From: Flavobacteriales bacterium
GTDB taxonomy: Bacteria > Bacteroidota > Bacteroidia > Flavobacteriales > BACL11
NCBI GenBank assembly: GCA_965183885.1
Contig: OZ238992.1
Coordinates: 500,197 to 564,196 of the forward strand
Length of the DNA stretch: 64,000 nucleotides
Direction of reading: 5' to 3'
Positions 2,513 to 34,183 of this stretch are shown piece after piece (position 1 is the first letter of the stretch; each line of letters begins with the position of its first letter). The translations under genes and the position numbers were made by a program. A model generated the notes under the pieces. The model worked only from the letters and a program-made list of their open reading frames with translations. It made no database searches and had not been told where the DNA came from.

Positions 2513-2873
2513 GCAAAAAAATATTACATTTAATATCAAACAGTCATAAAAAATGCACTTATTAACAGCTTTTTCTTAATAAAACTAAACTTCGAGAAGC
2601 TATAAAAAAACAACATCTATAAAATATTAAAAAAGCAAGCGTTTTACAACCTTCTTAAATACAAGCAATTACACCCAACAAACAATAAACTTATTTACCT
2701 ATAAATTAAATAACTAAAAAAACAAAAGAAAAACAAATATTCTTTTAAAAGCAAAGCCTAAAGCCCTAACAAATCTCCATGATAAAATAAAGTAATTACT
2801 ATCCTAATAAATTAAAGATTATACTTCAATATTTTTTTATAATTTGGCTCGCAGAAAAGAAAACCCATATATA

Positions 2874-7302: not shown

Positions 7303-7986
7303 TTAATTAGAGGAGTTAAATTTATCTAGCACTAAATCATATAAAATTAAAGCAATTGCATAAGGATAATAAATAAAGTAACGCTTTATAAGCTGCGGTT
7401 CATCGTACATTCTGTAAAATGCTCTAAGTCCTAGTTTATTTATCCAGTTTGGATAATATTTTATTCCAGCAGCAGTTTGATGCAAGAAACCTCCACAAGT
7501 AAAGCCCTCTCCTTCCCAAGCTGTTGCAGAAAGATCAATAAGAAACTGCTCCTGCAAAGGAGTTCCCATTCCACAAATCACATAATCTGCTTTAAGCTCA
7601 ATTATCTCATTAAAAACTACCGTCCTTTCATCCGATGTTCTTAAATAACCATCTCTAAAACCACAAATACTTAAATCTGGAAATTGTTTTTGAATATTTT
7701 GAATTGCAACATCAATTACCTTTGGTTTTGTACCAATAAAGTATATCGTTTTATTTTTTGCTATAGCCTCACCAAATACCACAGGAGCTAAAGAAGTCAT
7801 ATCAAAACTTTTTCGGGTATACCTACTGCCAAACAAATTCAATAATTTTACCAATAAAATCCCATCAATTTCTATATTAAAATGAGCTAATTGTTTCTTA
7901 TCTTTTCTTGCTAAAAGATAAGAAAATGGATTTAAGAATGTAGTAATTCGTTTATCCTTACTTTTTGATTTAATTATTCTAATCAT
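7303..7986 (-). CDS. WecB/TagA/CpsF-family glycosyltransferase (GT26)
   Basis: Size is 227 aa. Pattern: FLNPFSYLLARK...IDGILLV...IYFIGTKPKVIDVAIQNIQKQFPDL.ICGFRDGY...GMGTPLQE. Confidence 0.7.
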   Translation of the reverse strand: MIRIIKSKSKDKRITTFLNPFSYLLARKDKKQLAHFNIEIDGILLVKLLNLFGSRYTRKSFDMTSLAPVVFGEAIAKNKTIYFIGTKPKVIDVAIQNIQKQFPDLSICGFRDGYLRTSDERTVVFNEIIELKADYVICGMGTPLQEQFLIDLSATAWEGEGFTCGGFLHQTAAGIKYYPNWINKLGLRAFYRMYDEPQLIKRYFIYYPYAIALILYDLVLDKFNSSN

Positions 7987-9179
7987 AATACCTGTTCAAC
8001 TTCATTAACAATAATTTTTACTGATTCATTAGCATTTGGCTGAAAAAAATGAGCTATACTTATATTTTCTTTTTCTTTAGTTGAGAAAATATGTTCCAAC
8101 AGCTGATCCGTACTAAATGCCTTAATAAATAAATCATTATTAATAAAACTATTTTTAAACCTCCAATATTGATTATCTAAAAACAAGAATATTACTTTTT
8201 TCCCTATAGACATTGCCTCCAAAAGCACAGTAGAATTAACGCCAATAACAATGTCCTTTTCTTTTATCGATTTGTAAACATCAACTGATTTATCCTCCAG
8301 TGTAACCCAATTAAGATCAGGGACATAACTATAGTTTTTAATATCATCCCTAGGATGGATTCTAATTGTCAAGTGAATATCTGACACCTGTTCCTTAGCT
8401 AGCTTCTCTAACAAGATTTTTATTGTTTTATGCTGCAATCTATCATTCTCAAACTCATTATGCCATATATAACCTTGCGTGACATATAAGAGCTGTTTTT
8501 TATTACTCTTAACAGCCTCCACTTTATTTAAGAACCTGTACCTAGGCATACCACTTTTTACAAGCTTAACCTTTCGTATTATTTGCTTATTAATATGCGA
8601 AGCAACATAATCACTTATAACAAATATCTTTGACAATCTACTACAACCTACATCACTAGGTAATAAATAATTATACGGCAAAAAAGCAAATATTTTATTT
8701 AACCCCTTTTTAAAGATTCTTCTAAAATAATCTTTAACATCAAACATCTTATTCTCAGAATGTCTTATAACATCCTTTAGTGAGAATGAATAATCTGATA
8801 TTATTCCATCTAATATAAGTAAATGACTCTTATCTTTAAATTTATCAATAATAACTCTTTGCAAAGCCCCATCATTACCATAAATAAAAGCGTCAAAAGT
8901 ATTAAGGTTGTAATCTTTTATCACATCCTTAAATTGCATTAAGAATTTTATTTTCTCAACAAATGACAAATAAGCAAAAGCAGTCTTTAAACTCAAAGAA
9001 AGCTTTATAACATCAAACTTAAAGTCACTTTCATAAATATATTGATTATAAACCTCTGAAGTATCAAAAAAGAACACTTTATACCCTTTTAAAGACAATT
9101 GCTCCGCAACAGGTATCATATTATCAATATGAGTTTTATTTTGTGGGAAGAATAGAATCTTCTTGTTCCTTTTTTGCAT
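7983..9179 (-). CDS. GT-B-like transferase with an HP motif (TagF-type glycerophosphotransferase-like or bacterial sialyl/NulO-transferase-like)
   Basis: KKILFFPQN..H...MIPVAEQL at the N-terminus; LLYVTQGYIWHNE; LTIRIHPRDD; DIVIGVNSTVLLEAMSIGKKVIFL. The specific family cannot be resolved by eye. Confidence 0.4.
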   Translation of the reverse strand: MQKRNKKILFFPQNKTHIDNMIPVAEQLSLKGYKVFFFDTSEVYNQYIYESDFKFDVIKLSLSLKTAFAYLSFVEKIKFLMQFKDVIKDYNLNTFDAFIYGNDGALQRVIIDKFKDKSHLLILDGIISDYSFSLKDVIRHSENKMFDVKDYFRRIFKKGLNKIFAFLPYNYLLPSDVGCSRLSKIFVISDYVASHINKQIIRKVKLVKSGMPRYRFLNKVEAVKSNKKQLLYVTQGYIWHNEFENDRLQHKTIKILLEKLAKEQVSDIHLTIRIHPRDDIKNYSYVPDLNWVTLEDKSVDVYKSIKEKDIVIGVNSTVLLEAMSIGKKVIFLFLDNQYWRFKNSFINNDLFIKAFSTDQLLEHIFSTKEKENISIAHFFQPNANESVKIIVNEVEQVL

Positions 9180-10353
9180 AAAAATAAGATAACATTATAA
9201 ATATTAATAATTCCGATTGGTAAAAATAGTGCGCATTTTCTAAAAAACCAATAACCTCTATCCCAAAAAATAAAACAAACACTAACTTCACTATTTTTTG
9301 ATCCCTCAATGAGCTTCTTAAAATAGTCATAGTGACTTTATATTGATAGTATAGATATAGTATTAATCCCAAAATACCACCTTCAACCAACATTAACAAG
9401 TAATCATTATGCGCAGCTACACCACTTTCTCCAGTAGCATGAAAAAAGAATTCATTAAACCCTCCTAAACCAATACCAATTAAGAAATCTGAAACACTTA
9501 AATTAATAATCGATTGCTGAATAATAAACACCCTATACATAGAAGAAGCATCTAGTTCGCTTACTAAAAATAATTCTTTCATTCTTGGCAGAAGATCAGT
9601 ATAAAGCACAACTAAAACAAATAACACTCCAAATAGAAGACTAAAAACTAAATAAGATATCTTTACTAATAAACGCTTATTTAAATAAAAGTTAATAAAT
9701 AAATTTGCAAGAAATAATGCAATTAAGAGCAATCTAGAATGAGATAGAATGAAAATCCAGAATAATAAAATAAGCATTATAAACCTTAATAAGTTAAGTT
9801 TATTAAATGACACGTATTGCAAGTAGGTAATAAGAACAAAAGCAGATAAGGCAAAACCTAAATGATGGTCCGTAAAATTTCCTGCAACCCTATAGGCTCC
9901 ATTTACAAACCTTACACTTCCTGAAAGCAACTCATAGAATCCTGAAAACACAATAATAGATGACAACACCATTACCACTAAGGATACAGATGAAAGCTTT
10001 ATGTTATTACTTTTAAAACCTAAATAGAAAATGGTAAATGTTGTAATATATAATAAATATCTACTAAAGGTAGGTAGCCACTCAACCGGAGAATTTAATA
10101 AGATGGAAACAATGGACTGTAGCATAAAAATTAACCCCACAATTTTAAAAGTGCTTGACCAACTCATTCTTTGATGCATTACCGCATATAATATTACTAT
10201 AAATATCATATTAACTATTAACAAAGAAAAATAAACTGTAAAATTAATTATTCGTTCCTCAACAGCTATTAAATCAGCAAAAGGGTAAGCAAAAAAACTT
10301 AACACCCATATAATAGAGAAAAAATAAAAATGAACTTTATGTAAGCTTTTCAT
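9136..10353 (-). CDS. wzy: O-antigen polymerase/ligase-family membrane protein (Wzy-like)
   Basis: About 10-12 TM segments. A periplasmic-loop motif HATGESGVAAHNDYLLMLVEGGILG is typical of the Wzy_C/O-antigen ligase family. Confidence 0.65.
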   Translation of the reverse strand: MKSLHKVHFYFFSIIWVLSFFAYPFADLIAVEERIINFTVYFSLLIVNMIFIVILYAVMHQRMSWSSTFKIVGLIFMLQSIVSILLNSPVEWLPTFSRYLLYITTFTIFYLGFKSNNIKLSSVSLVVMVLSSIIVFSGFYELLSGSVRFVNGAYRVAGNFTDHHLGFALSAFVLITYLQYVSFNKLNLLRFIMLILLFWIFILSHSRLLLIALFLANLFINFYLNKRLLVKISYLVFSLLFGVLFVLVVLYTDLLPRMKELFLVSELDASSMYRVFIIQQSIINLSVSDFLIGIGLGGFNEFFFHATGESGVAAHNDYLLMLVEGGILGLILYLYYQYKVTMTILRSSLRDQKIVKLVFVLFFGIEVIGFLENAHYFYQSELLIFIMLSYFYAKKEQEDSILPTK

Positions 10354-11593
10354 ATAAAAGAGTCCAGGGCATTTTATAGTACTTATTTTGATACCAGAAT
10401 ACCATCACAGCACTAACTGAAAATGATAATACTGTAGCATATGCAGCTCCAATAGCACCATACCAATTAATAAAAATATAATTAAATAGTAAATTTAAAA
10501 TTGCTGCAACAAAAGTACTAATTCCTAAAAAGGAGGTTTTATTTAAGTGCACTAAATAAGGAAATAATATTTTATACACTCCATGTACTGCATATCCAAT
10601 TGCAATCCAGAACACATATATTTCTGCTCCTTCATACCTTACATTTACAACATAAGGAATAATTAATTTTGCAATTACCGAGATCAAAAAAGCTATTAAG
10701 AATATTGCTATAATATATAAGTAACTATATTTTACAATACGCTTTTTCTTTTTTGCATCTGGGTCAGATAACATCCTATAAAACCAAGGTGACCATGCCT
10801 TTATAAAGGCATCCGTAAACAATACCACTACCATCCCAAACATATACCCAACAGAATAAATTCCAACCATTTCTAAACTTATCATTCTTTCAATAAAAAA
10901 ACGATCACTTAAACCAATAATAATACCCCCAACAACATGAGGAATTAAAGGGATAGATAAATTAAGTACTTTCCTAAGCTCTACTTTATCAAACTTAAAT
11001 GTTACATACCCATTCCTATGCATATAAGCTAATGATATAAAAAAGAAAAGTGTATAAGCTGTAAGAATTCCTAAAGCCTGAGAGTACCAACCATAATTAT
11101 AAAATAATAACAATACTATAGTAACCCCCATATTCACAGCAGTATTTACCACCTCAAATGCTCCAAAAAGCAACGCTTTCTCTTCATTCCTCAATAGTGT
11201 TAAGTTAAGTGTATTTACCATAAACATAAAACTTATTACAGGAATAACCATTACCCAATTTGAGGGCACTGAAAACAAATTATCATACCATAGCGATGTA
11301 AGAAAAGTTATCCCTAAAGCTAAAGAAGCTGTTATAGTAAGAATGAATAATATATTAGCAATTAAAACAGAAAGCTGCTTTTTAGTATAATTGAAAAAAT
11401 TCTTAGAGATATTAGTATGCATAGCCATACCAATAAATGCTGAGTAAAAAGCAATCATCAACTGGAAAATCGCTAATACTCCATATTCTTCAGGAGATAG
11501 ATATTCAGTTAGCAATGGCAATAACAAAAAAGGTATTGCCTTATTTAGAACACTACTCCCTAAGTATATAATTGAACTTTTAATTAGTTGCAA
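10337..11593 (-). CDS. wzx: Oligosaccharide flippase (Wzx, MOP superfamily)
   Basis: The N-terminus reads SSIIYLGSSVLNKAIPFLLLPLLTEYLSPEEYGVLAIFQ. There are about 12 TM segments, and the gene sits in a polysaccharide-locus context. Confidence 0.7.
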   Translation of the reverse strand: MQLIKSSIIYLGSSVLNKAIPFLLLPLLTEYLSPEEYGVLAIFQLMIAFYSAFIGMAMHTNISKNFFNYTKKQLSVLIANILFILTITASLALGITFLTSLWYDNLFSVPSNWVMVIPVISFMFMVNTLNLTLLRNEEKALLFGAFEVVNTAVNMGVTIVLLLFYNYGWYSQALGILTAYTLFFFISLAYMHRNGYVTFKFDKVELRKVLNLSIPLIPHVVGGIIIGLSDRFFIERMISLEMVGIYSVGYMFGMVVVLFTDAFIKAWSPWFYRMLSDPDAKKKKRIVKYSYLYIIAIFLIAFLISVIAKLIIPYVVNVRYEGAEIYVFWIAIGYAVHGVYKILFPYLVHLNKTSFLGISTFVAAILNLLFNYIFINWYGAIGAAYATVLSFSVSAVMVFWYQNKYYKMPWTLLYEKLT

Positions 11594-12233
11594 TCTTCTT
11601 CAATTTATTTAGCGTTTCTATTGTAATTTCATTTTGAAAAAAAGAAATATTTTCTTTAATAAATTTCTTATCCCAATTCCACCACTCCATTGCCAATAAC
11701 TCTTTTATTAGCTCTTCCGAGAACCTATATTTTATTAGTTTAGCAGGAACTCCCCCCACGATTGCATAATCAGGAACATCTTTTGTAACTACTGACCCTG
11801 CACCTATTATAGCGCCATTCCCAATAGTAACACCAGGCATTATCACACTATTAGCACCTATCCAAACATCATTTTTTATTACAACCTTATTATAAGTTTG
11901 TTTACGCTTAGTCACAAAATTTCCTACATAAGGAACATAAGGAAAAGCACTTATTGACAAATTTTTATAAGGATGACTAATTGCATTAATTGTTACATCC
12001 CATGAAATTGCACAATATTTACCAATAACACTATTTGTGATTTTGGTATACCTACCAATAGAAGTAAGCCTTCCAATAACTGTTTGTTTAACATCAGCAA
12101 AAGGAGCTACCATTACTTCACTATTAAAGGTAGAGCCATCAATAATTGATTTTAATGATATTGATCCATAATCCTTAATGTTATTTGACCTAAATTTTAA
12201 TCTTAGTAAAATATGTTTAATAAGTTGTTTCAT
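11580..12233 (-). CDS. Hexapeptide-repeat (left-handed beta-helix) O-acetyltransferase, CatB/Vat-like
   Basis: VWIGANSVIMPGVTIGNGAIIGAGSVVTKDVPDYAIVGGVPAKLIKYRF, followed by a WWNW tail. Confidence 0.75.
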   Translation of the reverse strand: MKQLIKHILLRLKFRSNNIKDYGSISLKSIIDGSTFNSEVMVAPFADVKQTVIGRLTSIGRYTKITNSVIGKYCAISWDVTINAISHPYKNLSISAFPYVPYVGNFVTKRKQTYNKVVIKNDVWIGANSVIMPGVTIGNGAIIGAGSVVTKDVPDYAIVGGVPAKLIKYRFSEELIKELLAMEWWNWDKKFIKENISFFQNEITIETLNKLKKIATN

Positions 12234-12237
12234 AACA

Positions 12238-13380
12238 CTATGGCAATTGGGCTATAAACTCTTTCATTATACTAAAGTGTCTATCAATTTCTATTCTAGT
12301 CTGTTTAATCTTTACTCCATTGTTTAATTCATAACCAACAATATTTCTAAAATCATTTTTCAAATCCCAAAGCGGAGCAGTATCATCTATTATAATATCT
12401 AGTTTCCTTAGTGCTTTTAATAATAACGATGAGTTTACTTTATCTACAGACTCTAAAATAACACCTCCAATTACTTTTTCTAAAGCTTTTCCTCTACCAT
12501 CCTCACTAACTAATACTGTTGGCTTTGACATACTACTCATATATATATGAGCATGCACCCTATAACCGACATGTAAATCAACTGTATTATAATAATTCAT
12601 TAAATTCTCAGCACTACCTGAGATATCCACCCAATTAAAACTATTAGATTCTAACCAATTTAAGAATTTAAGTTGAGCATTATGAAATTGCTTATTTGCT
12701 CCTGGGGCATTTAAGTATTTATCTGATGGGGAATGATGAAAAACAGTTTCAACCTCTGCCTCTGGAAATAACTTTTTAGTTTCTAAGAATAGCTCCTTCA
12801 TCTGCTTTAACATTCCTTTTGAAGATAGAATTGCAGCCCCTAATGAAAAGCCTACTTTCTTTATATTAGCTGGAACCTTAACTTCTTTACCTAAATAATT
12901 TATATCATATAAAGCAGGGCACCCCGTCATCCTAAAATTAGTTAAACCTAAAGTATTTAGCACATTTTTAGTATGATAATCTCTAACACTTGAATAGTAT
13001 GGAGCATCATTAATTCTTGTTAACAGCTCTATACTTTTAGCGTCTAAATTATAGTCATGTGTATTTTTCCAGTCTCCTTGTTTTGAATACCAACCTACCC
13101 CCATAGCAAGTATTGGAACTTTTATATCATCCAAATTTGGCGTTAATCTATATACCCTAGGATACATCTTATTTTGAACAGCTGGCCCACCTAATAAAAT
13201 TAACGCTTTAGACTCATTAATTATTTTCAAGCTATTCTCACTTAGTTCTTCCCAAGCGTCAATATCCACAAGGTTAACTTCTGGCTTTAACTCTTTAAAT
13301 AACTGCTTTGCTCGATACTTTATTAAGTAATCTCCAGCATTATTTTTGCTTCCTGTTAATAATACATATTGATCTTTCAT
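12238..13380 (-). CDS. Polysaccharide pyruvyl-transferase-family protein
   Basis: The N-terminus LLTGSKNNAGDYLI, a later GYRVHAHI block, and the size all fit the PS_pyruv_trans architecture. Confidence 0.5.
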   Translation of the reverse strand: MKDQYVLLTGSKNNAGDYLIKYRAKQLFKELKPEVNLVDIDAWEELSENSLKIINESKALILLGGPAVQNKMYPRVYRLTPNLDDIKVPILAMGVGWYSKQGDWKNTHDYNLDAKSIELLTRINDAPYYSSVRDYHTKNVLNTLGLTNFRMTGCPALYDINYLGKEVKVPANIKKVGFSLGAAILSSKGMLKQMKELFLETKKLFPEAEVETVFHHSPSDKYLNAPGANKQFHNAQLKFLNWLESNSFNWVDISGSAENLMNYYNTVDLHVGYRVHAHIYMSSMSKPTVLVSEDGRGKALEKVIGGVILESVDKVNSSLLLKALRKLDIIIDDTAPLWDLKNDFRNIVGYELNNGVKIKQTRIEIDRHFSIMKEFIAQLP

Positions 13381-14435
13381 TAGAATAATTCTTTTGTAAT
13401 TATATCATCTTCAGTTACATCAACTTTTACTTCCTTACCAATAATATCGTCAATATATTTTGGACTAATTCCATGTGCAGGACGCTTAAAAGTTAAATCT
13501 TCTCTCTCTACCAGCTTACCTTTAGAAATATCTCTTGCAGCAACCAAGCTTCTTCTTGCATTTTCTCTTGCTTTATCTTCATCAGCTAAAGCCTCAACTT
13601 TAAAGCTTCCTAATACCTCAAAAGCTCTTTCTATATTCTTATTAAATACTAATAAATCTTCTTTATCCATTGCATGATAATGATCATTCCCTTCTAGTGT
13701 TTTATCATGGGTAAAATGCTTTTCAATAATTGTTGCACCTAATAAAACCGCTATCTCGCAAGTCTTCATGTCTTTTGGCAAGGTATGATCAGAATATCCA
13801 ATCAAATTATTTGGAAAAGCCTCTTTAAGACCTAAAATCATACCCAAATTAGCATTTTCATCTGGAGTAGGATAATTTAAGACACAATGCAATAGTGCTA
13901 GCGGGTTCTTAAATGGCTTTATCCAATTTACAGCATCTTGCACCTCACTAAGACTACTAGCGCCAGTAGAAAGGATAATTGGCTTCCCAAAGCTGCATAT
14001 AAACTCTATAAAAGGTTTATTTGTAATGTCCGATGATGATATCTTATAAACGTCCATCATTTTATCTAGGAAAGTTGCAGATTCTATATCAAAAGGGGTA
14101 CTCATAAACTCAATACCTACCTCATCACAATAATCTTTTAACTCTTGCATTTCTTTTTCCCAAAAGCCATCATGTTTTTTAAACAACTCAAATTGTGATT
14201 GTGTAGTTTCCTTTGTAGTGTCCCAATAGGCTGGAGAATGTTTAGACGCTAAAGTTTCAGCCTTATAGGACTGAAATTTTACAGCATGCGCACCTCCTGC
14301 TTTTGCCTGATCTACTAACTCTTTTGCAGTTTTCATTGAACCCTCATGATTCACTCCAACTTCTGCAATAATATATGGCAAACTTAAAGTACTACCACTA
14401 ACTACTTCTTTATTAATAACATCTAATATATTCAT
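13380..14435 (-). CDS. Nonulosonic acid synthase (NeuB/PseI/LegI family) with a C-terminal SAF domain
   Basis: IIAEVGVNHEGSMKTAKELVDQAKAGGAHAVKFQ...; a C-terminal RRSLVAARDISKGKLVEREDLTFKRP SAF-like segment. Confidence 0.85.
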   Translation of the reverse strand: MNILDVINKEVVSGSTLSLPYIIAEVGVNHEGSMKTAKELVDQAKAGGAHAVKFQSYKAETLASKHSPAYWDTTKETTQSQFELFKKHDGFWEKEMQELKDYCDEVGIEFMSTPFDIESATFLDKMMDVYKISSSDITNKPFIEFICSFGKPIILSTGASSLSEVQDAVNWIKPFKNPLALLHCVLNYPTPDENANLGMILGLKEAFPNNLIGYSDHTLPKDMKTCEIAVLLGATIIEKHFTHDKTLEGNDHYHAMDKEDLLVFNKNIERAFEVLGSFKVEALADEDKARENARRSLVAARDISKGKLVEREDLTFKRPAHGISPKYIDDIIGKEVKVDVTEDDIITKELF

Positions 14436-16060
14436 ATCGATTCTATTACTTCGTTTATTATTTTATTAACTTTCCTTCTTCCTGACTTTAACTGTTGCTG
14501 TTGCATTAAGCCACTCATACTTTCTCGCTTTTCTTTTGATGCTACTAAACACTGGAACTCATCATATAAAACTTCATCCGAAAGCTCATAACCAAGCCCT
14601 AAATTTAAAAAACCATACTTAGCAGATGCAAAAAAATGTGTCATCTCTCTTTCATTCTGACCCAAAACTATTGCCGGGGTTCCTATACTAGCAACTTCAT
14701 AAATTGTTCTTCCTGCCGAAGTAAATATTAAATCTGCAGATAACATGTAATCTGATATATTTGACACATTAGTCATTACCTTTACATTTTCAAAAGAATG
14801 TAGCGATTCATATTTAGCATATCCAAAACCAGCTATTACTACAATTTCAATATTATTCTTAATACAGAAATCATTTATTGTTTCAATAACTTTTAACGTA
14901 TAATTATTTGGATCTACGCCACCAAAAGTAATAAGAATCTGCTTAACATCATCTTTTATTTTTTTTGTCTCTGAAAGCATAAACTCATCCCTAAGAATAA
15001 AATAGTCTTGCCCAAAGTAATGCGCATCTAATACCTCTTTTTCAGGATATATAGCATTTATCACTACATCAGCAACTTTACCTCCCTCTCCTAAGTCTTC
15101 AAAGTTAATAACCTTACAACCTTTATCTTTTAAAGTATTAATATATATCAGGTCAGTATCTAACCTATCATTAATTACAATATCAGGAGCATATACCATA
15201 ATATCATCAATAATAGATTCACTTTCTTGAATATGTACAGGATAATTTTTTTCCTTAATTACATCATAAGCCAACTTACTGTCTTCATCAACTAAAAATG
15301 AAACTTGATGGTTTAGAATATCATTTGCTACCAATAGTGTGTTATAAACATGCCCCAGACCAACAGTACTATTTCCTGTAATTACAAATAATATATGTTT
15401 CCTTTTTAAATAATACTCACATAAATTCCAATCCTCATAAGTATCAATATCAATATCCTCTCCCATAGAGAGCAAGCTAAGCTCTACTTTTTCTCCTATT
15501 CTATTATGCTCAGATATTATAGTATTTCTGGTAATTAAAAATGCTCCTGTTTCAGTAAACGAAGGTGTTAAGTACTGTCTATTTAAGCGCTCAGTATAAT
15601 TAGGAATAAACTTTCCCTCTTCTTTTCTCCATGAAAGATGTGTTGCATCTTTTGCTGCAATAATTGTATCAATAGAATTATCTTCAAGCATCAAACTTAT
15701 TGATTTATCTAATGAGCCAGGACTAAGCAAAGGAGAGGTTGGCTGCATAGTAACTATCAAATCATAATCTTTAGCTTCAACCTCTTTACAATGCAGATAA
15801 CAATCGTATATAACAGGGTCAAGTGTAGATTTATCATCTGCTATTTGTGTAGGCCTCCTATGTGTTTTTGCTCCTAGCTTTACAGCTGTATTTAATATTT
15901 CATCATCTTCACTACTAACATAAACATCCAAATTATATTTTGAATTGATTGCATTATTGATTGTATAGTACAATAATGGCTTCCCATTCAACATCCTAAG
16001 ATTTTTTCTTGGAATTCCTTTTGACCCTCCTCTTGCAGGTATTACAACTAAAATATTCAT
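14432..16060 (-). CDS. Fusion protein: CMP-nonulosonate cytidylyltransferase (NeuA/PseF/SpsF-like) plus a PseG/SpsG-like UDP-sugar hydrolase/GT28-C-like domain
   Basis: N-terminus: ILVVIPARGGSKGIPRKNL...MQPTSPLL. C-terminal half: ILFVITGNSTVGLGHVYNTL...ITFGGVDPNN...ADLIFTSAGRTIYEVASIGTPAIVLGQNERE. Confidence 0.75.
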   Translation of the reverse strand: MNILVVIPARGGSKGIPRKNLRMLNGKPLLYYTINNAINSKYNLDVYVSSEDDEILNTAVKLGAKTHRRPTQIADDKSTLDPVIYDCYLHCKEVEAKDYDLIVTMQPTSPLLSPGSLDKSISLMLEDNSIDTIIAAKDATHLSWRKEEGKFIPNYTERLNRQYLTPSFTETGAFLITRNTIISEHNRIGEKVELSLLSMGEDIDIDTYEDWNLCEYYLKRKHILFVITGNSTVGLGHVYNTLLVANDILNHQVSFLVDEDSKLAYDVIKEKNYPVHIQESESIIDDIMVYAPDIVINDRLDTDLIYINTLKDKGCKVINFEDLGEGGKVADVVINAIYPEKEVLDAHYFGQDYFILRDEFMLSETKKIKDDVKQILITFGGVDPNNYTLKVIETINDFCIKNNIEIVVIAGFGYAKYESLHSFENVKVMTNVSNISDYMLSADLIFTSAGRTIYEVASIGTPAIVLGQNEREMTHFFASAKYGFLNLGLGYELSDEVLYDEFQCLVASKEKRESMSGLMQQQQLKSGRRKVNKIINEVIESI

Positions 16061-16062
16061 GT

Positions 16063-17037
16063 TTATTTTAAATCAATCAATTCATTAAACTCAATCTCCA
16101 ACTCTGTTTCTTTATTCTCAAAAAAACTATATAACTTATTAAAGATTGGTAACTTCTCATTTACCTCTTCATCCACCAAGCTATGAAACATATCTATAGC
16201 TCTTAAACCTTCTAATATAACAGAGTTTGATTTATAATCTGCACTAAAAAACCCTTTTCCGATAAGTAAACCTAAAGTTCTATTTCTACTTAAATCATTT
16301 AAAGAAGTCATACATAAATCTCCAAAACCACAAGCTAAAAACAATGTATCATCAGAACCTCCCATAGCTCTTAGTAAGACTCTTACTTCAGAAAAAGCCT
16401 TAGTTAAAATCATAAATCTCGTATTAGGTGAATTGTACTTAGCATCAACAACTCCTAAAACTAAAGCGTAAATATTTTTAAGTACACTTAACATTTCTAC
16501 TCCTCTAATATCAGTAGTACAATCAATATGTAATGAAGTATCTTTTATAACCTGATTAATCTGATTATATTGATTATCTGAAGAATACCCAAGTGTAAGT
16601 AAGGTAGCTGCATGTTCCATAACCTCAACTGCAAATGAAGGCCCTTTTAAAGTAACGACATTATCTGTTCCTAAGGCTTTTTTTACACTATCAACAATTG
16701 TAATACCTTCTGCATACAAACCTTTTGAAAGGTTAACAAAAAGTACTCCTTCAGAAAAATAAGATTTTAATTTTATAAGATTCTCAATAATTACTGATGA
16801 TGGCAATGCAATAAAAATTATGTCAACCTTAGATATAGCATTAAGATCATTGCTTGCTTTTAAATATTTAGAAAGATGCTTATTAGGAAAACAAGACCTG
16901 TTTGTATTCAAGGTATTAATCTCTTCAACTTTTTCCTGATTTCTTGAAAAAAGCACTACATTATTTTCAGTATTTACTGAGAGTTCATTTGCTATTGCAG
17001 TACCAAAAGTACCAGCTCCTAAGACTAAGATATTCAT
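16063..17037 (-). CDS. NAD(P)H-dependent glycerol-3-phosphate dehydrogenase family protein (GpsA-like)
   Basis: MNILVLGAGTFGTAIANEL Rossmann start; a LSRNRTLGLLIGKG motif matching the GpsA SRN..G..LG.G signature; 324 aa. Confidence 0.7.
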   Translation of the reverse strand: MNILVLGAGTFGTAIANELSVNTENNVVLFSRNQEKVEEINTLNTNRSCFPNKHLSKYLKASNDLNAISKVDIIFIALPSSVIIENLIKLKSYFSEGVLFVNLSKGLYAEGITIVDSVKKALGTDNVVTLKGPSFAVEVMEHAATLLTLGYSSDNQYNQINQVIKDTSLHIDCTTDIRGVEMLSVLKNIYALVLGVVDAKYNSPNTRFMILTKAFSEVRVLLRAMGGSDDTLFLACGFGDLCMTSLNDLSRNRTLGLLIGKGFFSADYKSNSVILEGLRAIDMFHSLVDEEVNEKLPIFNKLYSFFENKETELEIEFNELIDLK

Positions 17038-17056: not shown

Positions 17057-18910
17057 TTAAGTCAACTCAGAGGTATATCCATCAACATATTTCAACAAGA
17101 GTTCTTTAACAATTATTTCATCTTGTTGCTCTCTTGCATTTTTTATAACCTCGATACAAGAAGCTACAACTTCCATTGATAGTTTTTGCTCTTTTGCCTG
17201 CATAATTCTAGGATGCTCAGATTGCACTACATCATTACCAATAAGTAGCTCCTCATAAAGTTTTTCACCAGGTCTTAAACCTGTGTATTCTATCCTAATA
17301 TCACCATCAGGGTTTTCATTATCAATAGGAGTAAGACCACTTAAATGAATCATTTTATAGGCTAAATCAATTATTTTAATTGGCTCACCCATATCTAAAA
17401 CAAAAACATCTCCCCCTTTAGCCATAGCTCCTGCCTGCAAAACTAATTGTACTGCTTCTGGGATTGACATAAAATAACGAGTAATATTTCTATGAGTTAC
17501 TGTAACCGGACCTCCTGCTTTTATTTGTTTTCTAAAAAGTGGAACAACTGAACCTGCGGAATCCAACACATTACCGAAACGAACCATAGAAAAACAAGTT
17601 TTACTTTTTACAGCAAATGCTTGCAATACTAATTCTGAAAATCGTTTTGAAGCTCCCATAACATTTGTAGGACGAACAGCTTTATCAGTAGAAACCAACA
17701 CCATATTTTCCACCCCTAACTCATCAGAAAGACGTGCCACATTAAAAGTCCCTACTACATTATTATACACTCCTGAAACAATATTAATCTCTACCATAGG
17801 CACGTGCTTATAAGCTGCTGCATGATAGATAGTATGGATTTCATGTTTAGATATTAACTTCTTTAATTGATAATAATTAGTTATTGTACATAAAGCTGGA
17901 ATAACCTCTACATTAACACCCTTAGCAACCAACTCTAAATGAATAGTATACAAGTTAAACTCTGAGTTATCTAATAAAACTACTTTTTTGGGAGATAACC
18001 TCATTATTTGCCTAGACAACTCAGAACCAATACTTCCCCCAGCTCCTGTCACCAAAATATTCTTATCCTTTATATTTCTTTTTAAGAGCTCCTTTTTAGG
18101 CGCTACAGGGCTTCTACCTAAAATATCACCTACCTCAACATGTTGTATAGCATCTAAGGAAACTATTCCATTTACAATATTATCTACTGAAGGTAAAACT
18201 TTAACTTCAATAGGATATTTTGTAAGTTTTTTTAAAATCTGTTTTTTCTTTGAAGCTGTAATAGATGGAATTGCAAATAGCAGCACTTTAGCTCCTTTTT
18301 CTTTAATTAAATAATCTAATTTCTCATAAGGAAAAACCTCAAGATAATTCAAGATTGTACCTTGCCTTTGTTTATCATCATCAATAAAAGCAATAGAAGC
18401 ATAATCAACACTCTTTCTTAAACTTTCAGACAATTGAACCCCAGCATTACCTGCTCCATAAATAACTGTTTGCTTTCTTTCATTAACATAACTATCCCAA
18501 GAATATAAGATACCTTTAAACAAAAACCTTGAAGCAATTACAAATATATTAACAATAAACCAAAATATTGGAAGTACAGATCGTGGCAAGTTTGATTCCC
18601 TAAAAAACATCATAAAAAACCCAACAACTAAACAACTGATTGTTGTTGCCATAAATGTTGTTGTTATAACCTTAATCCCTATATATTGCAATACAGCTCT
18701 ATAAAGTCCCAATCTTATAAATAAAGGAATCATTAACAAAGGAAAAACAAGAAATAACCACCACGACGACTCTATATAGTCAGCCGGCCATACTTCTCCT
18801 AAACGCAATACAAAAGAGAACCATACTGAAAAAATAATAGTACACAAATCAATAAACAACATAATAAGTTGCTTATAAATACGCTCTAAATTTTGCAATC
18901 TAAACTTCAT
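17057..18910 (-). CDS. Membrane-anchored UDP-HexNAc 4,6-dehydratase (CapD/PglF/WbpM family)
   Basis: Four N-terminal TM segments, then VIYGAGNAG..., LVTGAGGSIGSEL, HAAAYKHVPMVE. Confidence 0.85.
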   Translation of the reverse strand: MKFRLQNLERIYKQLIMLFIDLCTIIFSVWFSFVLRLGEVWPADYIESSWWLFLVFPLLMIPLFIRLGLYRAVLQYIGIKVITTTFMATTISCLVVGFFMMFFRESNLPRSVLPIFWFIVNIFVIASRFLFKGILYSWDSYVNERKQTVIYGAGNAGVQLSESLRKSVDYASIAFIDDDKQRQGTILNYLEVFPYEKLDYLIKEKGAKVLLFAIPSITASKKKQILKKLTKYPIEVKVLPSVDNIVNGIVSLDAIQHVEVGDILGRSPVAPKKELLKRNIKDKNILVTGAGGSIGSELSRQIMRLSPKKVVLLDNSEFNLYTIHLELVAKGVNVEVIPALCTITNYYQLKKLISKHEIHTIYHAAAYKHVPMVEINIVSGVYNNVVGTFNVARLSDELGVENMVLVSTDKAVRPTNVMGASKRFSELVLQAFAVKSKTCFSMVRFGNVLDSAGSVVPLFRKQIKAGGPVTVTHRNITRYFMSIPEAVQLVLQAGAMAKGGDVFVLDMGEPIKIIDLAYKMIHLSGLTPIDNENPDGDIRIEYTGLRPGEKLYEELLIGNDVVQSEHPRIMQAKEQKLSMEVVASCIEVIKNAREQQDEIIVKELLLKYVDGYTSELT

Positions 18911-20033
18911 ACAATTCTTTTATGTTTTGTATTACTCTATCTATATCTTTCACCTCCATATTTGTCCCTGAAGGTAAACAAAGTCCTCTTAAAAATAAAT
19001 CCTCAGATAGTTCTCCTCCATAATATTTACAGTCAATAAAAATAGGTTGCTTATGCATAGGCTTCCATAATGGACGACTTTCAACATTATCTTTTTCAAG
19101 ATGCAAACGTAAAGTCTCTCTATCAATAGACGAGTCTTCACTTAATAATATTGTTGTCAGCCAATAGTTAGAGTATGCCCCTTGAAACTCTTCTAAAAAA
19201 GTAATCTCCTGAATAGCTTCTAATTCTTTCTTATAATAATTAAAAATCATTCTCTTCTTCTGGACTCTGTCCTTAAGAACCTCTAACTGCCCAATACCAA
19301 TTGCAGCAACAACATTACTCATTCTATAATTATAACCAATATTTGAATGTTCATAATGCGGAGCACTATCTCTAGCTTGAGTTGAAAGGAATTTTGCTTT
19401 CTCAATCATCTTTTCATCCTTACTAATTAAAGCACCTCCCCCAGAAGTTGTAATAATTTTATTTCCATTAAAAGAATAAATTCCAAAAGCACCAAAGGTA
19501 CCCAGCTGCCTTCCATTATAAGTACTTCCTAAAGCTTCAGCCGCATCTTCAATTAAAGGGATGTTATATTGATTAACAACTCTCATAATCTCATCCATAC
19601 TAGCAGGCATTCCATATAAATGCACTAATACAATTGCCTTAGGAGGTTTACCTTGAGCTATCCCATCTAAAATTGCTTGCTCTAGCAACTTAGGACACAT
19701 ATTCCAACTCTCCTTATCACTATCAACAAATATTGGGTTAGCTCCTTGATAGACTATTGGATTAGCTGATGCTGAAAATGTAAATGATGAACAAATTACA
19801 CTATCACCTTTTTGAACGTTTAATAGAATTAAAGCTAGATGTAAAGCTGCTGTACCACTACTTAATGCTGCCACACTATAACCCTCAGAAATATCAGATA
19901 AATCTTGTTCAAACTTAGTAATATGAGGACCTACTGGGGCTATCCAATTTGTATCAAAAGCTTCTTTAACGTAAAGCTGCTCAGCTCCTCCCATGTGGGG
20001 TGAAGCCAACCATATTTTTTTTTCTTTGTTCAA
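18900..20033 (-). CDS. DegT/DnrJ/EryC1/StrS-family sugar aminotransferase (PglE/WcfR-like)
   Basis: IWLASPHMGGAEQLYVKEAFDTNWIAPVGP; PLP-lysine context FNGNKIITTSGGGALI. Confidence 0.85.
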   Translation of the reverse strand: MNKEKKIWLASPHMGGAEQLYVKEAFDTNWIAPVGPHITKFEQDLSDISEGYSVAALSSGTAALHLALILLNVQKGDSVICSSFTFSASANPIVYQGANPIFVDSDKESWNMCPKLLEQAILDGIAQGKPPKAIVLVHLYGMPASMDEIMRVVNQYNIPLIEDAAEALGSTYNGRQLGTFGAFGIYSFNGNKIITTSGGGALISKDEKMIEKAKFLSTQARDSAPHYEHSNIGYNYRMSNVVAAIGIGQLEVLKDRVQKKRMIFNYYKKELEAIQEITFLEEFQGAYSNYWLTTILLSEDSSIDRETLRLHLEKDNVESRPLWKPMHKQPIFIDCKYYGGELSEDLFLRGLCLPSGTNMEVKDIDRVIQNIKELYEV

Positions 20034-20621
20034 TTAATAGGTTGTTCTGAATATAGTTGCAAATATAATCTTAATGTCTATCCAAAGGTTATTATTATAG
20101 TAATAATCTAGATTTATTCGCACTTTATCAGGAAACACAACCTTCATATTATATTCTTCAGGGTCTTTCTGTTGTGCTAATAATTCTTCCTCATTTGCAT
20201 ATTTAAGACTTGCAACCCCTGTTATTCCAGGTCTTAATTCTAAAATTTTTCTATCCTCACCTCTTAATAAATCTGCATAACCTGGGACATCAGGTCTTGG
20301 ACCAACAAAACTCATCTCTCCTATCAACACATTCCAAAGCTCAGGCAATTCATCTAATTTATACTTCCTAAGAAACACGCCTACTTTAGTAATTCTACTA
20401 TCTCCTTTTACTGAAACTGTAGAAGATGAGTCTTGCACAATAGACATTGTCCTAAACTTAACCAAAGTAAATTTCCCCCCATTTAGTCCAATTCTTTCCT
20501 GCTTAAAAAAAACAGCACCTTTTGATGAAAATCTTATAACTAATGAAACAATCAAAAATAAAGGCATAAAAACTATTAGACCAAAAAATGACATTATGAT
20601 ATCAAAAAATCTTTTTAGCAT
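20034..20621 (-). CDS. Small monotopic phosphoglycosyl transferase (PglC/WcfS-like initiating sugar transferase)
   Basis: 195 aa. KRFFDIIMSFFGLIVFMPLFLIVSLVIRFSSKGAVFFKQERIG...FRTM...DELPELWNVLIGEMSFVGPRP. Confidence 0.85.
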   Translation of the reverse strand: MLKRFFDIIMSFFGLIVFMPLFLIVSLVIRFSSKGAVFFKQERIGLNGGKFTLVKFRTMSIVQDSSSTVSVKGDSRITKVGVFLRKYKLDELPELWNVLIGEMSFVGPRPDVPGYADLLRGEDRKILELRPGITGVASLKYANEEELLAQQKDPEEYNMKVVFPDKVRINLDYYYNNNLWIDIKIIFATIFRTTY

Positions 20622-21370
20622 TACAATCTTCTTTTAATAGCATTAAAAGCATAAGAAACAAAACAATACAAGCTATAAAACAATGACAATTGTTCTATTT
20701 CTCTATACACCTTCCAAACCCCTAAAGTTGCCTTTATCTTATTTGAAGTATTTGAGGTTGAAACTAGACGATACTTTGCTAACACCTTATTTAAACCATA
20801 AGCCTTAACTCCGGTTCTCATTATCTTTAACCAAAGCGCCATATCCTGAGAAGATCTTACATTAGGCATTTCAACATCACTAATTTTATTTCTATCTAGA
20901 ATCACTGTTAAACAGCCAATAGCAGTATTCTTTAAATAAGATTGATACCCCATACTCTTAGGGGCTCTTATTACATTATATTCTTTAGTATCATCCTCAG
21001 AAATACGAATATAAGCAGTATAAGAGAATGCTATACTACCTTCCTCCATAAACTTTAGTTGCTCCTCTAATTTATTTGACACCCACATATCATCACTATC
21101 TAAGAAAGCAATAAAACGTCCCTTTGCGCTTTTAATAGCAAGGTTTCTTGCTGTAGCAGGACCAACATTATTGGTTAAGAAAATTGGCTTTATTCTATCA
21201 TCATTACTAACTAATTCTTTAATTAGAGCAACTGAATTATCTTTTGAACAATCATCTACAATAAGCAATTCCCAATTCTCATAGGTCTGATTTACTACTG
21301 ACTGAATACAAGAAGCAATAAATTTCTCAGAATTATACGAGGGGGTTATTATGGAAACTAAGCTATTCAT
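20621..21370 (-). CDS. Family 2 glycosyltransferase
   Basis: VSIITPSYNSEKFIASCIQSVVNQTYENWELLIVDDCSKDNS; DSDD motif (FLDSDDMW). Confidence 0.85.
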   Translation of the reverse strand: MNSLVSIITPSYNSEKFIASCIQSVVNQTYENWELLIVDDCSKDNSVALIKELVSNDDRIKPIFLTNNVGPATARNLAIKSAKGRFIAFLDSDDMWVSNKLEEQLKFMEEGSIAFSYTAYIRISEDDTKEYNVIRAPKSMGYQSYLKNTAIGCLTVILDRNKISDVEMPNVRSSQDMALWLKIMRTGVKAYGLNKVLAKYRLVSTSNTSNKIKATLGVWKVYREIEQLSLFYSLYCFVSYAFNAIKRRL

Positions 21371-21860
21371 CTCTCAATAATTTATAAACCCCTAAAAAAT
21401 CACTTTTCCTTCCTTCTGAAATTTTCTTAAAGCCTGCTTTCTCAATCCCTTTTACACTTGGGATATTATTCTTTCTTGTTCCTATCCAAATATCACTACC
21501 CTTTTTATGCTCAATAATTTTTGAGAGAGCAAACGGATACAAATTATTACCTCTAAACTTTAGATTTGTTTGGCAATTTACTATATGAAAATCACCTTTT
21601 TTCATAAATGGAAACTTAAATATCTTTGGCAAAACATTTGAATAATGAGCAATCTCTCCAGTCTCTTTATCTTCTATATAAAAAATTAACATCTTACTCT
21701 TAGAAAATAAAAACCAAAACATATACAATAATAAAGAATCATTATGTAGCTTCAGTTCCCCAAGACTGGGTTTAAAAAAATAATATTTAAACTTATCATC
21801 AATCTTAATAGATGGACTACCACTATTTAAATAAAACATAAGCTCTCCCTCTTTATTCAT
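21363..21860 (-). CDS. GNAT-like N-acetyltransferase
   Basis: FRGNNLYPFALSKIIEHKK...IGTRKNNIPSVKGIEKAGFKKI resembles GNAT motif A/B. The start is set at internal M19 (MNKEG), 8 nt overlapping the upstream stop. The track ORF extends to 21914. Confidence 0.5.
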   Translation of the reverse strand: MNKEGELMFYLNSGSPSIKIDDKFKYYFFKPSLGELKLHNDSLLLYMFWFLFSKSKMLIFYIEDKETGEIAHYSNVLPKIFKFPFMKKGDFHIVNCQTNLKFRGNNLYPFALSKIIEHKKGSDIWIGTRKNNIPSVKGIEKAGFKKISEGRKSDFLGVYKLLRDE

Positions 21861-28406: not shown

Positions 28407-28411
28407 AAAGT

Positions 28412-28433
28412 AAAAAAGCCCCAAAGGGGCTTT
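28412..28433 (-). terminator. Rho-independent terminator downstream of gldN
   Basis: On the minus strand: AAAGCCCC-UUU-GGGGCUUU followed by UUUUUU. The stem is a perfect GC-rich 8 bp. It lies 28 nt after the gldN stop. Confidence 0.8.
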
Positions 28434-29360: not shown

Positions 29361-29365
29361 AATTT

Positions 29366-31060: not shown

Positions 31061-31094
31061 ATTATTTTATGTTTTTCTTAGTAATTTAAAATGA

Positions 31095-31742: not shown

Positions 31743-31778
31743 TGTCTTTCTTTTATTTAATTATTTATTAATTCTATT

Positions 31779-33089: not shown

Positions 33090-33122
33090 ATTTATTTATC
33101 ACAATTGTGAATTAAATCTATT

Positions 33123-34040: not shown

Positions 34041-34183
34041 ATTTGGGTTGCCCATTGAAAATTTTTGGCGCTAAAATAAACAATTTTTAATTAAGCGTCT
34101 AAAATACTACCCACTATCTTATCAATTCAACTGAAATAAAAACCTTAAGCAAAGGCTATCCTACTAAACATCAAAGCATTCAA

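Follow-up and report, generated by a model that had tools for sequence, protein, structure and literature searches.

A putative CMP-nonulosonate cassette beside a glycerol-3-phosphate dehydrogenase paralogue in a polysaccharide locus of a Flavobacteriales bacterium

Nonulosonic acids (NulOs) influence the charge of the cell surface, how phages and grazers recognise cells and how sticky particles are, and their biosynthesis is usually inferred from the textbook gene sets for neuraminic (Neu), legionaminic (Leg) and pseudaminic (Pse) acids. A polysaccharide locus of a Flavobacteriales bacterium (GenBank assembly GCA_965183885.1, contig OZ238992.1, positions 500,197 to 564,196; this whole stretch of 64,000 nucleotides is called the window below) raises a double question in this respect. 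In the window, a gpsA-like gene is followed by a gene that fuses a putative cytidine monophosphate (CMP)-NulO synthetase to a PseG-like domain, and then by a neuB-like synthase gene. Does the dehydrogenase take part in a NulO pathway, and which NulO could the two other genes produce? The best overall explanation, to which we give a probability of about 0.6, is that a separate NulO cassette, probably of the ketodeoxynonulosonic acid (Kdn) type, lies beside a gpsA that belongs to the conserved frame of the locus. The genes and domains concerned are the following (positions in the window):

16063-17037, minus strand: GpsA-like NAD(P)H glycerol-3-phosphate dehydrogenase paralogue, 324 amino acids (aa), with NAD_Gly3P_dh_N, NAD_Gly3P_dh_C and GPD_NAD_C_bact domains
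14432-16060, minus strand: fusion gene, 542 aa, with an N-terminal CTP_transf_3 domain and a match to PseG (TIGR03590) at residues 222-466
15407-16060, minus strand: N-terminal domain of the fusion (residues 1-218), predicted CMP-NulO synthetase with a Kdn-type gatekeeper, Arg187 (CTP_transf_3, E = 1e-22)
14432-15397, minus strand: C-terminal domain of the fusion (residues 222-542), PseG/SpsG-like, GT-B type, inferred nucleotide-sugar hydrolase (TIGR03590, E = 1.9e-33)
13380-14435, minus strand: NeuB-family NulO synthase, 351 aa, with a TIM barrel (PF03102, 252 bits) and a SAF domain (50 bits)

The NulO cassette and the position of gpsA

The open reading frames (ORFs) and their domains agree with the initial annotation of three consecutive genes of GpsA type, of a CMP-synthetase::PseG-like fusion and of NeuB type, all on the minus strand. 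The stop/start overlaps that it described hold for the fusion and neuB, which have 4 nucleotides (nt) in common (ATGA), and not for gpsA, whose TAA stop (16065-16063) is separated by 2 nt from the ATG of the fusion at 16060. NeuB is translationally coupled to the fusion through the ATGA overlap. At the outer borders, neuB and the next gene have 1 nt in common (TAATG) and the PglF-like gene is separated from gpsA by 19 nt, as read from the sequence. Since the family matches of the three proteins all fall under the curated NCBI equivalog cut-offs (GpsA, PseG, PseF, NeuB), their names are valid at the family level and not at the equivalog level.

Of the 5579 homologues of the fusion, the best 120 (541-558 aa in length) share 67-73% identity with it and include Aliarcobacter skirrowii WP_066354398.1 as well as metagenome-assembled genomes (MAGs) labelled Alphaproteobacteria, Arcobacter and Crocinitomicaceae; homologues at 57-73% identity bear the source names Flavobacteriales, Crocinitomicaceae, Arcobacter/Aliarcobacter and Alphaproteobacteria. 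An assembly artefact is ruled out by the thousands of homologues of about 541 aa with the same architecture. Because close homologues span differently labelled lineages (Aliarcobacter, Alphaproteobacteria, Crocinitomicaceae), their distribution points to a conserved unit that is horizontally mobile. The genes that accompany the fusion were counted over 84 metagenome loci, the denominators being the loci with enough sequence:

NeuB directly downstream of the fusion (62-81% identity): 68/71 loci
Pyruvyl-transferase homologue as third gene: 34/62 loci
Alternative 369-aa Walker-A protein as third gene, usually with an APH-like kinase: 12/62 loci
Wzx: 48/84 loci
Hexapeptide acetyltransferase of a separate, more divergent 181-aa family: 26/84 loci
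GpsA directly upstream of the fusion: 6/58 loci
PglF just upstream of the fusion: 6/37 loci

The cassette depends on neither GpsA nor PglF, as each of them is found near the fusion in so few loci. In four loci (L016-L019) neither is near, and in two of these (L016 and L017) the cassette sits among housekeeping genes. The NulO module of the initial annotation is thus borne out in the form of a conserved cytidylyltransferase::PseG-like fusion with a NeuB-type synthase, and these two proteins very probably make up an autonomous CMP-NulO cassette. A literature search for Kdn in Flavobacteria or for described fusions of this kind found nothing specific. As a side observation, the Walker-A protein (weak HprK-related match) and an APH/choline-kinase-like kinase replace the pyruvyl transferase in L016-L019, L025, L029, L042 and L086, which suggests a phosphorylated form of the product or polymer. 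Within the 867-kb contig of L018, a glmS-like gene and neuB (8048-9759 and 11629-12685) are broken into several ORFs, probably by assembly or indel errors, and gene-presence calls from contigs of this sort need care.

The GpsA-like gene is carried by 12 GTDB genomes, almost all labelled Flavobacteriales MAGs, and by metagenome contigs. With the exception of the more distant Aggregatimonas locus L014, the loci that bear it form one syntenic locus. Its left-hand genes are 62-81% identical and syntenic in L001-L015, with PglF and the aminotransferase always there. The frame …GT2-PglC-aminotransferase-PglF-GpsA is kept in the close relatives (L001-L010, L013, L015), in which GpsA is 72-78% and PglF 76-81% identical to the window proteins; both go down to about 65-68% in L011 and L012, and the PglC-like gene is only 36% identical in L004. 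On the right-hand side, a WbaP-like transferase (5829-7214) is 71-86% identical across relatives. In 13 related loci gpsA keeps its place after PglF although the downstream contents are of five different kinds. The arrangements after gpsA are:

Window and L015: fusion and NeuB
L001-3, L007, L008, L013: GpsA::TagD, then Wzx and a PF04464 glycerophosphotransferase
L011, L012: CTP_transf_3::HAD, a GalE-like epimerase and a short NeuB without SAF
L004: WecB and a UDP (uridine diphosphate)-sugar dehydrogenase
L005: Wzx and a sulfotransferase
L010: a GT56-like protein

This distribution is at odds with the GpsA embedded in a NulO cassette that had been proposed: in about 90% of loci the fusion and NeuB have no gpsA with them, and gpsA occupies the same position in relatives without NulO genes (L001, L004, L005, L007, L008, L010, L013 and L101). 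The latter is one of the two points that the initial annotation had named together as evidence against its own reading, the second being a single gpsA in the genome. Moreover, the NulO genes of L009 sit between PglF and gpsA::tagD, L036 has gpsA::tagD upstream of the cassette, and in L059 the cassette directly follows PglF on a 9.1-kb contig without gpsA. It is therefore highly likely that gpsA closes the conserved frame and is not a component of the cassette; the variable cassette region begins right after it. In many relatives, GpsA::TagD and a TagF-like transferase would provide cytidine diphosphate (CDP)-glycerol and a glycerol-phosphate polymer. The NulO cassette fills the slot used there for the TagD/TagF-like genes, and the gpsA of the window stands alone. 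A TagD relic 3' of gpsA is ruled out by the 2 nt that separate it from the fusion. The case is a cautionary one: adjacency at the border between frame and cassette of a polysaccharide locus need not mean a common pathway.

Some variants of this locus deserve mention in their own right. In L011 (8984-12016) and L012 (8984-11993), gpsA is followed by genes for a fusion of CTP_transf_3 to a HAD phosphatase, for a GalE-like epimerase and for a NeuB of 287 aa that lacks SAF; this set corresponds to the animal/Bacteroides-type 9-phosphate route to NulOs in the same locus slot. In L001 and L002 (6418-8139), the PglC-like protein and the DegT aminotransferase are joined in one 573-aa ORF; they are separate genes in the window. 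A stand-alone GpsA followed by WecB and a protein like UDP-N-acetylmannosamine (ManNAc) dehydrogenase, with no TagD nearby, is found in L101 (Aggregatimonas sangjinii CP040710, 8001-11425) and L004 (8001-11294), so that this arrangement recurs in two distant Flavobacteriales lineages.

Domains of the cassette and its possible product

The motifs of CMP-NulO synthetases (CMAS), PARGGSKG (P-loop), QPTSP, RQ (dimerisation arm) and the metal-binding DxD, are invariant in 31 and in 83 homologues of the fusion. The best solved relative of the N-terminal domain is 9T4Z, the CMP-Kdn synthetase of Prymnesium parvum (PpNeuA), which comes first in the sequence comparison (96.8 bits) as well as in the fold comparison (34% identity), ahead of the CMP-N-acetylneuraminic acid (Neu5Ac) synthetases of mouse, Vibrio and Neisseria and of the Aeromonas PseF; the fold matches of the domain include 9T4Z, 6IFD and 1QWJ. 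The score of the PseF equivalog TIGR03584 is 107.8, against a cut-off of 205.7. PpNeuA has Arg196 in place of the hydrophobic residue that makes room for the 5-N-acetyl group, the R196L substitution shifts its specificity from Kdn to Neu5Ac, and this gatekeeper Arg is reported only in Kdn-specific enzymes (PMC12934254). Arg187 of the window protein (NRIGEK) aligns with Arg196 of PpNeuA (CRLGEK) in HMMER alignments and is invariant in 83/83 fusions; the same position is a Leu in mouse CMAS and Phe192 in that of N. meningitidis.

The C-terminal domain matches the PseG profile TIGR03590 over model positions 2-267 of 280, with a score of 116.3 against an equivalog cut-off of 153.55. In hhalign, PseG of Campylobacter jejuni (3HBM) can be aligned to it over the whole length (probability 86%, 246 columns, 25% identity), and the catalytic His17 of PseG, in the GxGH loop, falls on H237 (GLGH), which is invariant in the fusions. 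A failure to match PseG/SpsG profiles had been named beforehand as evidence against this assignment; the PseG profile does match. The AlphaFold2 model of the domain has a GT-B fold of the MurG/GT1 type (pLDDT 80, pTM 0.74), and a sequence search of the PDB gave no match to it at E <= 0.01, so its link to PseG is drawn from the NCBIfam profile and the alignment with the 3HBM sequence. From these similarities, the domain seems fairly likely to be a hydrolase, with a predicted activity and substrate. A NulO pathway that has a PseG-like enzyme and no NeuC has a precedent in Bacillus subtilis, with SpsG (PMC7439481).

Judging by PDB and NCBIfam scores, in a comparison that holds no LegI or bacterial Kdn-synthase reference, the synthase is closest to N. 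meningitidis NeuB (188 bits), followed by SpsE (159) and PseI (142). It scores 335 with NeuB_NnaB (cut-off 399.65) and 259 with PseI (cut-off 340.25). Its FKRP motif aligns with R314 of N. meningitidis.

These elements suggest the following mechanism. The PseG/SpsG-like domain would hydrolyse a common nucleotide hexose to the free aldose, for instance GDP (guanosine diphosphate)-mannose to mannose, and would thereby replace NeuC; NeuB would then condense the aldose with phosphoenolpyruvate, and the N-terminal domain of the fusion would activate the product with cytidine triphosphate (CTP) to give the CMP-sugar. Kdn or another 5-hydroxy NulO without a 5-N-acetyl group is the most plausible product, since the synthetase is closest to a CMP-Kdn synthetase and has its gatekeeper Arg, and since the cassette usually lacks a dedicated dehydratase and aminotransferase; we propose it tentatively. 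A product of the Leg type seems unlikely, some other product rather unlikely, Neu5Ac improbable, and Pse hardly to be expected. The linkage of neuB to a pyruvyl transferase also fits Kdn, because a 7,9-ketal needs free 7-OH and 9-OH groups, which are absent in Leg and Pse; 7,9-pyruvylated Kdn is known in nature (PMC6801904). Besides, the Kdn of Serratia marcescens is made by a module of two genes, neuA and neuB, without neuC (PMC9000132). A more specific and more doubtful proposal is that the cassette represents a minimal, hitherto undescribed pathway of two genes, leading to CMP-Kdn or to a novel 5-hydroxy NulO, that uses a PseG-type hydrolase, has spread horizontally in marine Bacteroidota, Campylobacterota and Alphaproteobacteria, and often yields a pyruvylated product.

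Several points weigh against this proposal for the cassette and its product. The second pocket residue differs, being Leu175 in the fusion and Tyr183 in PpNeuA, and the trout CMAS prefers Kdn yet has a Leu as gatekeeper, which makes this residue an imperfect predictor. The identity of the NulO rests on one gatekeeper residue and on the similarity to a single characterised enzyme. NeuB keeps Arg314, an N-acetyl contact in N. meningitidis, but this residue is conserved in all SAF-bearing NeuBs. Moreover, PglF and a LegC-family aminotransferase (408 against a cut-off of 420) lie just upstream in the window and DegT aminotransferases occur in 13/84 cassette loci, so that a legionaminic route of the Sps type is possible in the window. 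Finally, the top 50 Foldseek matches of the C-terminal domain include MurG and GT1 transferases, and PseG is not among them. The GxGH motif with its histidine also occurs in MurG, and the domain could be a transferase.

Alternative readings

Apart from a separate cassette, the first explanation to be weighed is an integrated pathway, in which the PglF-like dehydratase, the aminotransferase and the acetyltransferase of the upstream polysaccharide unit (unit B) would make a UDP-2,4-diamino-2,4,6-trideoxyhexose, the PseG-like domain would release the sugar, and the product would be CMP-Leg, as in the Sps pathway, or CMP-Pse. The initial annotation had assigned the missing steps to these unit-B enzymes. 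Its dehydratase (17057-18910) and aminotransferase (18900-20033) are confirmed as PglF-like and DegT, and they lie directly upstream, the latter in the LegC family (TIGR04181, 408 vs 420). Furthermore, B. subtilis makes Leg by the Sps pathway without a NeuC-type gene (PMC7439481), the C-terminal domain is PseG/SpsG-like and SpsE is the second-best solved relative of NeuB. Nevertheless, the cassette is without PglF in 31 of the 37 informative loci, so that the linkage to PglF/SpsM, SpsC and SpsD required for an Sps-type set is lacking. PglF and the aminotransferase are instead found in every frame locus (L001-L015) beside a PglC-like transferase, which fits the synthesis of an initiating sugar. 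The acetyltransferase step meets a further difficulty: no N-acetyltransferase of the PglD/SpsD/PseH type was identified in the window by Pfam and NCBIfam scans, and the protein annotated as a GNAT at 21363-21860 has no match in either collection even at E <= 1. The position that is Leu, Phe or Ile in enzymes binding the N-acetyl group is an Arg in the synthetase, and the synthase is nearer to NeuB than to PseI. As for the Pse pathway itself, profile scans agree with the initial annotation that no NeuC-type (Epimerase_2), PseB or PseH gene is adjacent; an inverting PseB is missing (TIGR03589, 155 vs 407.75), as is PseH, and the synthase is not of the PseI type. Unit-B enzymes may supply the missing steps in the source genome, but as a general rule this idea finds no support, and the integrated pathway seems unlikely.

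A second possibility, also unlikely, concerns the C-terminal domain alone, which might be a glycosyltransferase (GT), for example one that transfers the NulO from CMP-NulO; the aldose for NeuB would then come from elsewhere, for example from a phosphorylated hexose. The structural matches and the shared GxGH motif mentioned above speak for it, as do the score below the PseG equivalog cut-off and the name 'glycosyltransferase' that NCBI gives to some homologues. Yet PseG is by far the best profile for this domain (E = 1.9e-33, compared with 4e-4 for MurG), the alignment with PseG runs end to end and the domain has the compact size of PseG. The presence in the locus of a separate BFO_1060-like candidate for the NulO transferase weakens the idea, no phosphatase is there for a 9-phosphate route, and SpsG provides a precedent for the hydrolase.

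A third possibility is that the GpsA-like protein is simply the housekeeping GpsA of small-genome Flavobacteriales, encoded by chance in a polysaccharide locus. Its position and sequence are kept regardless of the cassette (72-78% identity in L001-L010, L013 and L015, next to PglF at 76-81%), the source contig measures just 2.1 Mb, and the gene is also found by itself where nothing in the locus visibly needs CDP-glycerol. The protein appears to be catalytically intact as well: it matches PF01210, PF07479 and PF20618 (E = 2.8e-32, 9.8e-29 and 3.5e-18), its GPS(F/H)A (here GPSFA), LKN and GDL..T..SRNR motifs are intact when aligned to T. maritima 1Z82 and Coxiella 3K96, and the substrate and catalytic motifs are kept in all 23 copies aligned; a glycerol-3-phosphate (G3P) dehydrogenase activity is predicted. 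Yet it falls under all 14 NCBIfam GpsA cut-offs, the best scores being 200 vs 257 (NF000942) and 172 vs 202 (NF000940). In a search of 1.84 billion cluster representatives, it belongs to a small group of about 25-30 full-length clusters (about 33-61% identity, 155-420 bits), and the bulk of GpsAs lies at about 30% identity and 125-140 bits. Like the window protein, 9/10 of the nearest 50%-cluster representatives fail every curated GpsA model, whereas 8/8 canonical control representatives (about 30% identity) pass.

Marine metagenomes abound in homologues at 75-81% identity, and about one seventh of the best 120 are 450-aa fusions with PF01467 (TagD family); in the one fusion checked, P0243, the TagD domain is above the TIGR01518 cut-off. 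The topology of a GpsA distance tree is independent of the downstream cassette, and the TagD fusions form one clade nested among the stand-alone copies. The same subfamily is present in polysaccharide loci of cultured large-genome Flavobacteriaceae (4.7-4.9 Mb), right after the rml genes. The paralogue of Aggregatimonas sangjinii (4.7 Mb) stands alone before WecB and WecC and is annotated 'hypothetical protein'; that of Mariniflexile rhizosphaerae has TagD fused to it, and a glycerophosphotransferase comes next. Flavobacteriaceae with large genomes are expected to hold a canonical gpsA too. A second, canonical gpsA was found neither in the window nor in 1.2 Mb of further loci. The failure against the curated models, the frequent fusion to TagD and the occurrence in large genomes make a housekeeping function rather unlikely, and we infer that gpsA is a non-housekeeping paralogue in the source genome, with the canonical gpsA elsewhere.

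Ordinary CMP-Neu5Ac, for which the PseG-like domain would act on UDP-ManNAc from WecB or on UDP-GlcNAc (N-acetylglucosamine), is an improbable product of the cassette. NeuB is closest to its N. meningitidis counterpart and keeps Arg314, WecB occurs in 11 and a WecC-like protein in 17 cassette loci, and the hexapeptide acetyltransferases recall NeuD and NeuO. Nevertheless, a clash between Arg187 and the 5-N-acetyl group is predicted, a tblastn search found no WecB/NeuC-like sequence in the whole window, and WecB is missing from most cassette loci.

Lastly, a role of GpsA in the NulO module, whether it made glycerol phosphate for a substituent of the NulO or polymer or reduced a keto-sugar, is very improbable: the intact gene is co-oriented with the fusion at 2 nt, the arrangement recurs in L015, L023, L025, L026, L029, L035 and L041 and gpsA precedes a different NeuA::HAD and NeuB set in L011 and L012, but every such adjacency lies within a single locus frame of Flavobacteriales, gpsA is missing from about 90% of cassettes, it persists beside WecB/WecC, sulfotransferase or GT56 cassettes without NulO genes, and in L009 the cassette is upstream of it. 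The initial annotation had put forward both functions. Glycerol phosphate fits the relatives with TagD and a TagF-like gene, but neither gene is in the window according to tblastn and Pfam, so no consumer of G3P is visible in this locus. A ketoreductase is unlikely, and an enzyme acting on dihydroxyacetone phosphate (DHAP) and G3P is predicted to be far more likely, because the phosphate-binding motifs for DHAP/G3P are intact and because fusions of this paralogue to a genuine TagD domain recur.

The polysaccharide region and known systems

The separate cassette and its frame belong to a polysaccharide region that forms a long minus-strand stretch made of two units. In the order of transcription, the upstream unit consists of a UDP-glucose dehydrogenase, a flippase-like protein, an EpsG-like polymerase, two proteins of unknown family and a GT2, then the PglC-like and DegT/LegC proteins and the membrane 4,6-dehydratase of PglF/WbpM type. 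The genes 3' of gpsA, the fusion and neuB run from the pyruvyl transferase to the WbaP-like transferase. The features on either side of the three genes are, from upstream to downstream:

20034-20621, minus strand: PglC-like small phosphoglycosyl transferase, conserved left-hand frame (profile matches)
18900-20033, minus strand: DegT/LegC-family aminotransferase, conserved left-hand frame (TIGR04181, 408 bits vs cut-off 420)
17057-18910, minus strand: PglF-like 4,6-dehydratase, conserved left-hand frame (profile matches)
12238-13380, minus strand: polysaccharide pyruvyl-transferase-family protein, frequent third gene of the cassette (PF04230, E = 3e-22)
11580-12233, minus strand: hexapeptide-repeat acetyltransferase, probably an O-acetyltransferase (Hexapep; Vat/CatB-like; weak NeuD_NnaD match)
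10337-11593, minus strand: Wzx-type flippase (Polysacc_synt match)
9136-10353, minus strand: Wzy-type polymerase (Wzy_C match)
7983-9179, minus strand: candidate NulO transferase, 398 aa, family assignment not confident (weak NF046086 BFO_1060 and PF05159 matches)
7303-7986, minus strand: WecG/TagA/CpsF-family (GT26) glycosyltransferase (PF03808, E = 4e-32)
5829-7214, minus strand: WbaP-like polyprenyl-phosphate sugar-phosphate transferase, predicted to initiate unit A, conserved right-hand frame (Bac_transf and CoA_binding_3)

A homologue of the acetyltransferase (11580-12233), 39-65% identical to it, follows in at least 11 of the cassette loci. The downstream proteins, namely the pyruvyl transferase, the O-acetyltransferase, Wzx, Wzy, the BFO_1060-like candidate, the WecG GT and the WbaP-like protein, would decorate and use the NulO, and would together form a Wzx/Wzy-dependent acidic polysaccharide unit. 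The 398-aa protein, which adjoins the WecG/TagA GT, is a candidate NulO transferase in view of weak matches to NF046086 BFO_1060 (E = 5e-6) and PF05159 Capsule_synth (E = 0.005); a 446-aa protein with the same weak BFO_1060 match occurs in 25 cassette loci. A TagF-like identity of the 398-aa protein was ruled out, as it has no similarity to the Glyphos_transf protein of L001 and no PF04464 match.

Four proteins of 183, 270, 476 and 537 aa (21363-22665, minus; 4454-5884, minus; 2844-4457, plus) are kept in the locus frame and have no Pfam match, at E <= 1 for the first three and at E <= 1e-4 for the last; those of 183 and 270 aa have no NCBIfam match at E <= 1 either. The 270-aa protein is found in nearly all related loci at 41-66% identity. 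A UDP-ManNAc/UDP-sugar dehydrogenase-like gene (27163-28424, minus) is apparently interrupted by a frameshift near 27351: when a homologue of 422 aa is compared, its residues 4-355 correspond to 28391-27351 and residues 360-422 to 27351-27163 in a different frame. The called ORF has just 379 aa and a truncated C-terminal domain, owing to a pseudogene or to a sequencing error. Immediately upstream of the polysaccharide region lies a type IX secretion/gliding block (28461-34055, minus) with GldN, GldM, GldL, an FGE-sulfatase-type GldK-like protein and PorP/SprF, which confirms the Bacteroidota origin of the window.

The cassette is an uncharacterised and very common variant of NulO biosynthesis in which all parts come from known enzyme families. 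Present schemes would mis-type a cassette that is abundant in marine metagenomes, as 'Pse' through its PseG-like domain or as 'Neu' through its NeuB. Its abundance, its spread across phyla and this likely mis-typing make it worth an experiment. If the proposed function were confirmed, it would provide a bacterial two-protein system for CMP-Kdn-like donors, and Arg187 would become a marker for the prediction of Kdn in genomes.

Comparison with known systems places the cassette between several pathways. The synthetase domain resembles PpNeuA (PDB 9T4Z; PMC12934254) in its CTP- and metal-binding motifs and in the gatekeeper Arg within RIGEK/RLGEK. PpNeuA differs in being a stand-alone eukaryotic enzyme with a transmembrane anchor and no PseG-like domain, and no PseG-like hydrolase is known from the algal pathway. 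The capsule loci KL1 and KL2 of Serratia marcescens (PMC9000132) are similar in that a two-gene neuA-neuB set without neuC, whose product is mainly Kdn, opens the variable region of a Wzx/Wzy locus. In contrast to the cassette, their additional domain (sugar-phosphate isomerase/epimerase, COG1082) is carried by NeuB and not by NeuA, and they have no PseG-like domain.

The Leg route of B. subtilis comprises SpsM (complemented by PglF), SpsC, SpsD, SpsG, SpsE as well as SpsF and proceeds through UDP-linked precursors (PMC7439481). Its PseG-like SpsG, NeuB-family SpsE and cytidylyltransferase recall the cassette, as does the lack of a NeuC-type gene among the required sps genes, and the window, too, has a PglF-like dehydratase close by, together with a DegT aminotransferase. 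The Sps enzymes are separate proteins, however, and the route needs a dehydratase, an aminotransferase and an acetyltransferase, which are missing from most cassette loci; its 5,7-di-N-acetylated product fits the gatekeeper Arg of the fusion poorly. SpsF belongs to another cytidylyltransferase subfamily. The C-terminal domain of the fusion resembles C. jejuni PseG (3HBM) in its (Y/F)xL/IR(E/D)EF and GG(T/V)D motifs and in its compact GT-B size. It differs from PseG in that Tyr78 is not conserved, in that it lacks the PseB/PseC/PseH context and in that it is joined to a CMP-NulO synthetase, and its substrate is probably not the UDP-6-deoxy-AltdiNAc of PseG.

The BFO_1060 family comprises the Tannerella forsythia enzymes that transfer Pse or Leg derivatives to N-acetylmannosaminuronic acid (ManNAcA) (PMC5420450). 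As in the window, a transferase gene of the ManNAc(A) type adjoins Tanf_01245/TFUB4_00887 in T. forsythia; the matches in the window and in the cassette loci, at 26-36 bits, are far under the family cut-off of 200, and the function of these proteins is a prediction. Finally, the Flavobacteriales loci with GpsA::TagD and a TagF-like gene (Mariniflexile rhizosphaerae, L001, L100), which are related to teichoic-acid-like capsule systems, have the same GpsA subfamily (53-81% identity), and their GpsA likewise heads the variable region. They differ from the window locus, whose GpsA copy has no TagD domain and which has no TagF-like gene.

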